From Escherichia phage EC.P1, in the sequence record PQ657772.1: a DNA stretch of 64,000 bases; one strand, 5' to 3'. Positions 9,186-9,614 of this stretch are shown here, in pieces; position 1 is the first letter of the stretch; every line of letters begins with the position of its first letter. Position numbers and translations under genes: made by a program. Under the pieces are notes generated by a model. The model did no database searches and was not told the DNA's origin. It was given only the letters and a program-made list of their open reading frames with translations.

Positions 9186-9614
9186 TTAGTACTGGGAATC
9201 TTCATCTTCATCGTAGTAATCTTCTTCATCTTCATCGGATGTACCATAGAATTCAAGACCATACGTTTCACACATTTCTTGAATCTTATCAACATCGGTA
9301 TCTAAGTAAGAATCAAAATTACCACTAAGACTAACAACATCAATAAACGTTGTAGTATCAGTACTTGCATAGATGATATCATATTTTAATGATTCAACTT
9401 TCGAGTCAATTCTGGTTTGCAATTCATAGATATTAATCCATGAATTAGTGTCAATATTACATCTCCAAACATTAGTATCGTCAGTTTCTAGTTCAGGTAT
9501 ATAGTCAAGTGAAGATACCATGTCATCCATAATACCATCATCATTCAACAATACATCAATTATATCTAACGTTTCTTGGTCACAGATAAAAGCAATACTA
9601 GATCTTAATTCCAT
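9186..9614 (-). CDS. highly acidic small protein (142 aa), possible DNA mimic
   Basis: Very high D/E content, C-terminal DEDEEDYYDEDEDSQY. Confidence 0.45.
   Translation of the reverse strand: MELRSSIAFICDQETLDIIDVLLNDDGIMDDMVSSLDYIPELETDDTNVWRCNIDTNSWINIYELQTRIDSKVESLKYDIIYASTDTTTFIDVVSLSGNFDSYLDTDVDKIQEMCETYGLEFYGTSDEDEEDYYDEDEDSQY

Follow-up and report, generated by a model that had tools for sequence, protein, structure and literature searches.

A strongly acidic protein of 142 amino acids is encoded at 9,186–9,614 on the minus strand of the window, by which we mean the whole stretch of 64,000 nucleotides of Escherichia phage EC.P1 (PQ657772.1) that was analysed. The family to which this protein belongs is confined to the Rak2-like clade of phages and is present in every sampled lineage at a fixed position, at the end of a recombination sub-module that lies within the replication genes. 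We tentatively read the protein as a clade-specific polyanionic accessory of the phage's own recombination and replication machinery, with a probability of about 0.37. The argument for this reading is built from synteny, analogy and one phylogenetic contrast. The original prediction had cast the protein as a DNA mimic directed at restriction enzymes or other DNA-binding defence proteins. The acidity behind that proposal is real, the charge appears to be under selection, and the balance of acidic and basic residues is like that of Ocr, but the proposed role in anti-restriction or anti-defence is unsupported.

The gene begins with an ATG and runs for 142 codons to a stop codon at 9,186–9,188, and the C-terminus of its product reads ...GTSDEDEEDYYDEDEDSQY*. 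The reading frame first proposed, for which no strand had been given, is borne out on the minus strand, and the C-terminal tail quoted for it, DEDEEDYYDEDEDSQY, is exact. We regard the gene as real because a ribosome-binding site lies upstream and because homologues of full length are found in 72 phage genomes, in 57 protein clusters and in 18 credible distant representatives. The product contains 25 Asp and 14 Glu, giving 39 acidic residues (27.5%), together with 3 Lys, 3 Arg and no His, and its net charge is −33. Of the 61 ORFs of at least 100 amino acids in the window, only one is more acidic than this ORF, in keeping with the extreme Asp/Glu content from which the original prediction started. 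When the ends of the 135 window ORFs of at least 50 amino acids are compared, this ORF alone has eight or more Asp or Glu among its last 15 residues. The pI, which had been proposed as a check along with the charge distribution, is about 3.1 by our own titration calculation; the Biopython figure of 4.05 is the floor of that routine's search and not a true value. The charge is distributed over two regions. Residues 1–125 (9,240–9,614, minus strand) make up what AlphaFold2, the alignment and column statistics together indicate to be a folded acidic α/β body with a net charge of about −21. Residues 126–142 (9,189–9,239, minus strand) form a predicted disordered tail, SDEDEEDYYDEDEDSQY, which has a pLDDT below 50 in both models and a conserved composition. 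Eleven of these 17 residues are acidic and three are Tyr, including the C-terminal residue, and the tail holds about a third of the excess charge of the protein (11 of net −33).

The region shares 99.8% identity with Escherichia phage fEgEco12 and about 83–84% with 121Q and PBECO4, both Rak2-like jumbo myoviruses, a group with genomes of 345–385 kb. The surroundings of the acidic gene agree with the placement among replication genes that had been noted at the start. All of the neighbouring genes lie on the minus strand, and window gene order and family matches identify, in the direction of transcription, a gp32-like SSB with a Pro/Ala-rich linker (13,686–14,753, from its translation and a six-lineage alignment), UvsX (12,498–13,616), UvsY (12,037–12,498) and a DnaQ-like exonuclease (11,171–11,989). 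Next, and immediately upstream of the acidic gene, comes a UvsW-like SF2 helicase (9,671–11,155). It matches the Pfam families ResIII, DEAD and Helicase_C and a PHROG annotated as DNA helicase, and is 24% identical to T4 UvsW by tblastn. Both the SSB and this helicase are candidate partners of the acidic protein. On the other side, five closely packed genes, here called N1–N5, occupy 6,198–9,176, and the genes for a primase and a DnaB-like helicase lie farther downstream. N1 (8,679–9,176, phrog_11279) encodes 165 amino acids, starts 9 nt past the stop codon of the acidic gene, and has no match in Pfam or the PDB. We considered whether the six-gene run might be a fragmented DnaE polymerase and rejected the idea, since no piece has support from Pfam or the PDB. 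Similarly, the label "clamp-loader small subunit" carried by a 281-residue neighbour in phage Turkey3 did not recur in our searches of Pfam, PHROGs and the PDB.

Homologues of the acidic protein are found at full length in 72 phage records by tblastn against a phage collection. The number of records with a helicase at least 60% identical to that of the window is also 72 (8+27+1+10+26), which is a match of counts only, as the two record lists were not compared one by one. A word-indexed search returned 57 protein clusters whose members are 139–146 amino acids long and at least 55% identical, and when 1.84 billion cluster representatives were searched exhaustively with an HMM, only about 18 credible and more distant members of 130–156 amino acids were gained. 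Vibrio phage 2.275.O (349 kb) is the single isolate beyond the enterobacterial group that carries the protein. Gene order is strongly conserved. The order SSB-UvsX-UvsY-exonuclease-helicase-acidic-N1 is kept in Vibrio phage 2.275.O and in metagenomic contigs whose members are only 20–34% identical, and in the distant contigs the shared order starts at the terminase and continues past the acidic gene through N1–N5, the primase and DnaB. In the window and in all seven further lineages examined, the acidic gene directly follows the UvsW-like helicase on the same strand. Since position is fixed and every sampled Rak2-like lineage has the gene, it does not qualify as a sporadic accessory gene. Phages PA5oct and Phosso retain N1 and the helicase without the acidic protein, which implies that the recombination module is able to work without it. 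A candidate for a de-acidified homologue in PA5oct, gp268, was rejected, since the likeness is by eye only and hmmsearch gives E = 5.6.

The family diverges rapidly in sequence, and keeps its charge. Pairwise identity across lineages is 20–34%. For the neighbouring genes the corresponding figures are 28–37% for N2 and N3, 45–58% for the SSB and 54–76% for N1, so that the acidic protein diverges at the rate of its fastest neighbours. Despite identities as low as 20%, the net charge lies between −26 and −38 in all 40 family sequences compared, with the body contributing −13 to −24 and the last 25 residues containing 7–16 acidic and at most one basic residue. Column statistics identify 20 body columns that are at least 70% Asp or Glu in the family as a whole. 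Every family sequence has an acidic residue at positions 79, 92 and 101, and D101 is the sole strictly invariant residue in the wide alignment. The end of the tail is similarly constrained, with an aromatic residue in the last three positions of 39 of the 40 sequences and in the last six positions of all of them. From these alignments, selection appears to act on composition and on the design of the tail rather than on exact sequence.

The body of the protein is predicted with confidence to adopt an α/β ferredoxin-like fold spanning residues 1–125. A shallow alignment gave an AlphaFold2 model with a mean pLDDT of 71, and adding the distant members raised this to 83, with a pTM of 0.73 and values of 84–92 for the blocks of the body. 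The predicted topology is β1-α1-β2-β3-α2-β4-β5-β6-α3, after which the model enters the tail, where pLDDT falls below 50. Neither sequence nor predicted structure connects the protein to a known family. Across Pfam, PHROGs and the PDB sequence searches, the only match is phrog_16541 (E 7e-74); a Pfam scan at E up to 1 yielded two unrelated sub-threshold matches, and PDB sequence and profile searches gave no relevant match. Foldseek searches of the PDB with both models returned best E values of 0.02–0.045 and query TM-scores of at most about 0.4, and these matches are all generic ferredoxin-like proteins (ACT, PII/SbtB, ribosomal S6 and papillomavirus E2). Ocr, ArdA, Arn, Ugi, Gam, gp5.9, clamps and SSBs do not appear among the best 50 Foldseek matches of each search. 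Against BFVD, the significant matches are family members from RaK2 and Vibrio phages only; weaker "YubB ferredoxin-like" matches (TM 0.35–0.45) were dropped because Pfam gave them no backing. A sliding clamp of the gp45 type, which came into question because gp45 is reported to be missing from Rak2-like phages, or a part of a clamp loader was considered and rejected, as no clamp or PCNA is among the listed structural matches and the protein has a single domain of 125 residues. There is likewise no Pfam match to gp32 or SSB and no OB fold is predicted, and a net charge of −33 makes it implausible that the acidic protein itself binds ssDNA. In sum, the family fails every homology test applied, whether to Ocr, ArdA, Gam, UvsW.1, SSB or clamp.

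The closest parallel in position is UvsW.1 (PF11637) of T4, which like the acidic protein is small, acidic and encoded immediately 3' of uvsW. UvsW.1 occupies this position in T4, RB16, JSE and Aeromonas phage 65, and in each case the protein ends with an acidic run and a terminal Phe (...DSDDEVEESF in T4, ...EEEKF in RB16, ...EVEDF in Aeromonas phage 65 and ...EEPEEDF in JSE). UvsW.1 has been put forward as a potential partner of UvsW (Iyer et al., PMC7824862). The two proteins are nonetheless not homologous. The hhalign probability is 0.1% and the acidic protein has no match to PF11637, against which T4 UvsW.1 itself scores 1.5e-30. A tblastn search with T4 UvsW.1 matched 1340 records, and among the 40 matches listed there is no Rak2-like record, since none of these exceeds 235 kb. 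The proteins differ in build as well: UvsW.1 has 76–90 residues, is described as "trihelical" (PMC7824862) and has a net charge of −6 to −13, in contrast to 142 residues, a predicted α/β body and a net charge of −33 for the acidic protein. No small gene for an acidic-tailed protein follows uvsW in cyanophage S-PRM1, Stenotrophomonas phage Ps15, a KVP40-like Vibrio phage or a 636-kb megaphage. We therefore rejected this pattern as a general rule, given its failure in S-PRM1, Ps15, R10Z and the megaphage.

The tail has its best known counterparts in single-stranded DNA-binding proteins. The C-terminal tails of T4 gp32, T7 gp2.5 and E. coli SSB resemble that of the acidic protein in being disordered, rich in Asp and Glu, and aromatic at or near the end. 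Tails of this kind recruit helicases and polymerases, as in the pairing of gp32 with UvsW (PMC5314882) and of gp2.5 with the T7 replication proteins (PMC10359462). T4 UvsW binds the acidic C-terminal tail of gp32, and the contact is needed on gp32-coated DNA (Perumal 2013, as relayed in PMC5314882). In T7, the acidic tail of gp2.5 contacts replication proteins (PMC10359462), and the title of Marintcheva 2008, in the reference list of that paper, states that tail and ssDNA compete for a single binding surface. The gene for the acidic protein and that for the SSB of the phage belong to one gene block. Unlike the tails of gp32, gp2.5 and bacterial SSB, however, the tail of the acidic protein is carried on a separate polypeptide, and the clade's own SSB has a basic tip.

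We compared this SSB across lineages that do and do not carry the acidic protein. In the clade, the core of the gp32-like SSB is followed by a Pro/Ala/Gln-rich linker and no acidic tail, and the C-terminal tip is conserved, basic and amphipathic (...SALVARLKQQGK, with the general form SDLLARLKAxK). Linker and tail together have a net charge of +3 to −1 in six lineages that carry the acidic protein. Four outgroups, PA5oct, Atu_ph07, Phosso and SCTP-2, have the same type of SSB without the acidic protein, and in all four the SSB linker contains clearly acidic patches with a net charge of −4 to −9, the patch in PA5oct reading IEDDNDDLPWED. The comparison of six lineages with four outgroups amounts to one single phylogenetic contrast. 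Phosso and Atu_ph07 also have small and unrelated proteins encoded next to uvsY, both with tails of Asp, Glu and Tyr; the PA5oct member of these uvsY-adjacent proteins has only a short acidic end, GEADDD. Homology of the acidic protein to UvsW.1 or to the uvsY-adjacent proteins was rejected on hhalign probabilities of at most 0.9%. Taken together, UvsW.1, the uvsY-adjacent proteins and the acidic family indicate that acidic, aromatic-tipped tails recur in the recombination modules of the T4 superfamily and are rare elsewhere.

These observations suggest how an accessory of the phage's own machinery might work. A compact acidic α/β body joined to a flexible Asp/Glu tail with near-terminal aromatics would constitute a protein-borne polyanion. 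Such a polyanion could dock onto a partner protein in DNA metabolism, at basic surfaces that bind DNA or recognize tails, the likeliest partners being the adjacent UvsW-like helicase and the clade's SSB, which is without an acidic tail. The acidic protein would in this way provide in trans the acidic-tail handshake made in cis by gp32, gp2.5 and bacterial SSB, and T4 may achieve the same through UvsW.1. We infer the binding partner, the effect on helicase or SSB and the timing of expression. The accessory reading is favoured by the fixed presence and position of the gene, by the selected charge in both body and tail, and by a design of disordered tail that is rare. The UvsW.1 positional analogue, the gp32–UvsW and gp2.5 handshake precedents, the SSB charge contrast and the recurrence of acidic-tailed small proteins next to uvsY point the same way. 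So does the composition of the virion: CBB_282, the counterpart of the acidic protein in CBB by gene order, was not detected by mass spectrometry of CBB virions in the CBB paper, in which N4 (CBB_286) was detected. Against it, the partner is a guess, and UvsW.1 is a protein without established function that is non-homologous and differently folded. An acidic-tailed gene after uvsW is not general, and PA5oct and Phosso manage without the acidic protein. Finally, a folded body at net −21 exceeds what a carrier of the tail would need, and would be just as fitting in a mimic of dsDNA that targets a host enzyme. A more specific form of the accessory reading, which we hold to be rather unlikely, is a two-piece SSB handshake, in which the acidic module for protein recruitment and autoinhibition of a gp32-type SSB has, in the Rak2-like clade, been moved to a separate polypeptide. 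The polyanion would dock on the basic tip of the SSB or on the UvsW-like helicase and, once docked, would offer its Asp/Glu/Tyr tail to a helicase, recombinase or polymerase. On this view, the same solution would have evolved on at least three separate occasions in recombination modules of the T4 superfamily, as UvsW.1, as the uvsY-adjacent proteins of Atu_ph07 and Phosso, and as the acidic family.

Several other roles would make use of the same charge, and of these we give most weight to inhibition of a host nuclease, which has an appreciable though low probability. The protein would here act as a mimic of DNA or of DNA ends that inhibits a nuclease such as RecBCD, protecting both the linear, terminally redundant genome and the intermediates produced by UvsX, UvsY and UvsW. 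Lambda Gam and T7 gp5.9 are small acidic RecBCD inhibitors encoded within phage recombination or replication clusters; gam adjoins exo-bet and gene 5.9 adjoins gene 6, a parallel in location that counts for this explanation. Conservation across hosts suits a conserved target, and the charge density is like that of Ocr (PMC4872106). The putative sigma70-like extended −10 element of the gene, described below, would permit expression before or with replication. No end protector of the T4 gp2 type is detectable within the 64-kb window, and none appears among the T4 core-gene homologues listed for CBB in the CBB paper, although the window check spans only 64 kb of a genome of roughly 375 kb. The acidic protein has no detectable homology to Gam or gp5.9, its predicted fold class differs from theirs, and it has no sequence or fold likeness to any solved inhibitor. 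The aromatic-tipped tail is not specific to RecBCD inhibition either, since it also occurs in UvsW.1 of T4, a phage that by annotation counters RecBCD through gp2.

Blocking of type I restriction-modification, or of another DNA-binding defence such as BREX and similar systems, by a dsDNA mimic of the Ocr/ArdA kind was the role originally predicted, and we now consider it improbable. Its strongest point is composition: the 39 acidic and 6 basic residues in 142 amino acids compare closely with the 34 and 6 found in the 116 residues of Ocr (PMC4872106), and this similar balance makes some form of nucleic-acid mimicry plausible. Like Ocr and ArdA, the acidic protein is small, has a ratio of acidic to basic residues almost the same as theirs and conserves its acidity; its body is confidently predicted to be folded, and it shares with known mimics a fast sequence evolution in which charge is kept. 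The searches gave no Pfam match to Ocr, ArdA or any other family and no known mimic among the best 50 Foldseek matches of each search, a lack of homology that is not decisive because the known DNA mimics share no fold. In every lineage, marine Vibrio and uncultured relatives included, the gene is fixed in a core block of replication and recombination genes, and not in a first-injected, variable early or accessory region. A disordered tail holding about a third of the excess charge also differs from the rigid surfaces by which Ocr and ArdA mimic phosphates, and the protein shows no likeness to these two in sequence or structure. In addition, the CBB paper credits DNA methyltransferases with the evasion of restriction. 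Fixed position, disordered tail and absent similarity thus make the anti-restriction role less likely. Slighter still is the chance that the protein is a polyanionic decoy for host HU, H-NS or RNA polymerase, or a chaperone that keeps the abundant basic DNA-binding proteins of the phage off non-target nucleic acid; its role would then lie in host takeover or proteostasis and not in recombination as such. The extreme and conserved charge would suit either function, and T7 gp5.5 and T4 Arn count as precedents. Further precedents are acidic proteins with HU or H-NS as their target, DMP12 among them (PMC3643605). The gene context, however, offers no pointer to the nucleoid or to transcription, and a decoy or chaperone would leave the strict linkage to helicase and recombination genes unexplained. 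The remaining probability falls to explanations outside those considered here.

The acidic family is structurally unrelated to known proteins and restricted to one clade, and the polyanionic type of protein that it represents is already known in principle. The traits that it shares with known families are physical only: charge density with Ocr, the tail with SSB tails and UvsW.1, and position with UvsW.1. Rak2-like jumbo phages are under development as therapeutic agents, and more than 80% of the genes in them have no annotation; the acidic family is one in a run of conserved uncharacterized genes inside the replication and recombination block. Published comparisons describe these phages as being without a recognizable gp45, gp62 or gp59. 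If the acidic protein is an accessory of this machinery, its role would help to explain how a recombination-dependent replisome of the T4 type operates with an SSB that lacks an acidic tail. It could also give a first clue to what is done by T4 UvsW.1, whose structure dates from 2007 and still has no function assigned to it. Should the protein act on a host nuclease or restriction enzyme instead, the family would be a new DNA-mimic fold shared by all sampled members of an entire phage clade.

The boundary between the helicase and the acidic gene contains several candidate expression signals, all on the minus strand. Direct reading of the sequence reveals a Shine-Dalgarno-like AAGGAAG at 9,625–9,631, 10 nt upstream of the ATG. 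A pattern search located a perfect extended −10 promoter-like element, TGATATAAT, at 9,650–9,658, which we treat as putative. A 10-bp hairpin whose loop is formed by the stop codon of the helicase is predicted at 9,661–9,683, and RNA folding of 9,640–9,700 gives −20.1 kcal/mol (z = −3.7). This hairpin is not a classical terminator, since no run of T follows it. A hairpin followed by a −10-like element also occurs at the equivalent junction in three distant lineages (L004, L006 and L008). Judged from sequence, the arrangement would fit a separate host sigma70 start for the acidic gene, and with it early or middle expression. RNA-seq data from PA5oct are irrelevant to the timing, as that phage is without the gene. 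A generic scan of the region for sigma70 promoters and terminators showed no enrichment. The extended −10 motif itself is modestly enriched in the window, with 11 sites compared to 5.6 expected; the minus (coding) strand holds 10 of these, two of them upstream of the SSB gene.

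The acidic gene, which encodes the 142-aa polyanionic protein, is followed on its 3' side by five tightly packed genes (N1-N5), the first of which is exceptionally conserved. N1 (window 8679-9176, minus strand, 165 aa) starts 9 nt past the acidic gene, and its identity across lineages is 54-76%, compared with 20-37% for the adjoining genes. Homologues are present in PA5oct (gp267) and in Phosso. The protein has no match in Pfam or PDB searches and is marked by the motifs WQILLGDEETGM, NPIxSMYPKF, and FFADEN.

Two further proteins of this run carry replication labels elsewhere. 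The 281-aa protein at window 7831-8676 (minus strand) is entered as 'sliding-clamp-loader small subunit' in related GenBank records, and the 212-aa protein at window 6198-6836 (minus strand) as 'DNA polymerase III alpha', with the PHROG label 'DNA polymerase'. Pfam and PDB sequence searches support neither the clamp-loader nor the polymerase label. N3 (window 7140-7850, minus strand, 236 aa) has one C2HC/C2H2-like zinc finger at its N-terminal end, YKCKFCDKEFKREDTVNTHKC, and a profile built from five orthologues matched eukaryote-type C2H2 fingers in the PDB (E 1.8e-5). N4 (window 6814-7143, minus strand) is a coiled-coil-like protein of 109 aa encoded within the replication operon. The PHROG that contains it is annotated as virion structural protein, and CBB_286, its counterpart by gene order in the Rak2-like phage CBB, was found in CBB virions by mass spectrometry. 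In relatives, the conserved block is interrupted in two cases by homing-endonuclease-type insertions: one metagenomic contig has an I-TevI/NUMOD3-like ORF (L002:10582-11184) separating N4 from N5, and a 'Hef-like homing endonuclease' lies 3' of the split uvsX in PA5oct (L018:13093-14928).

The gp32-like SSB (window 13686-14753, minus strand) lacks an acidic C-terminal domain. Its core is instead followed by a Pro/Ala/Gln-rich linker and then a basic amphipathic tip ending in SASALVARLKQQGK. Six Rak2-like lineages keep this tip, as do the four outgroups PA5oct, Atu_ph07, Phosso, and SCTP-2. The linker has acidic patches in the outgroups, whereas the Rak2-like lineages have none. The SSB N-terminus contains LAEIRAKLKA, which is similar to the C-terminal tip. 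Immediately upstream of the SSB gene are two copies of the extended -10 motif TGNTATAAT. This motif occurs at 11 sites in the window against 5.6 expected, 10 of them on the minus strand (examples are at 4797, 5205, 9650, 14823, 14899, 18088, and 20126), and the sites are candidate host-polymerase promoters.

Small acidic proteins also occur beside uvsY in other phages, where they form a family of 66-89 aa with homology neither to UvsW.1, the small T4 protein encoded 3' of uvsW, nor to the family of the 142-aa protein. The members from Sinorhizobium phage Phosso (L020:11321-11554) and Agrobacterium phage Atu_ph07 (L019:15566-15835) have D/E/Tyr tails, ETDEDEDEDYDDYE and EMDEEEEYDYDY, respectively, and the PA5oct member (L018:14925-15125) ends in just GEADDD. 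Atu_ph07 also encodes a 160-aa protein (L019:14752-15234, minus strand) that ends in DSDDDDDDDDDWD and has a weak, sub-threshold match to Mrr_cat_2, a restriction endonuclease domain. Within the window, only one ORF exceeds the 142-aa protein in acidity (34730-35575, minus strand, 281 aa, 30% Asp/Glu). On one side of it is a portal-like gene (35965-37701), on the other a prohead-protease-like gene (34078-34698), and this position alone makes its product a probable scaffold or prohead-core protein.

The T4 reference NC_000866.4 continues to annotate uvsW as a single fused ORF of 587 codons that includes UvsW.1 (L009:1893-3656). The records of RB16, JSE, and Aeromonas phage 65 use the gene name uvsW.1 with the product entered as 'DNA helicase'.
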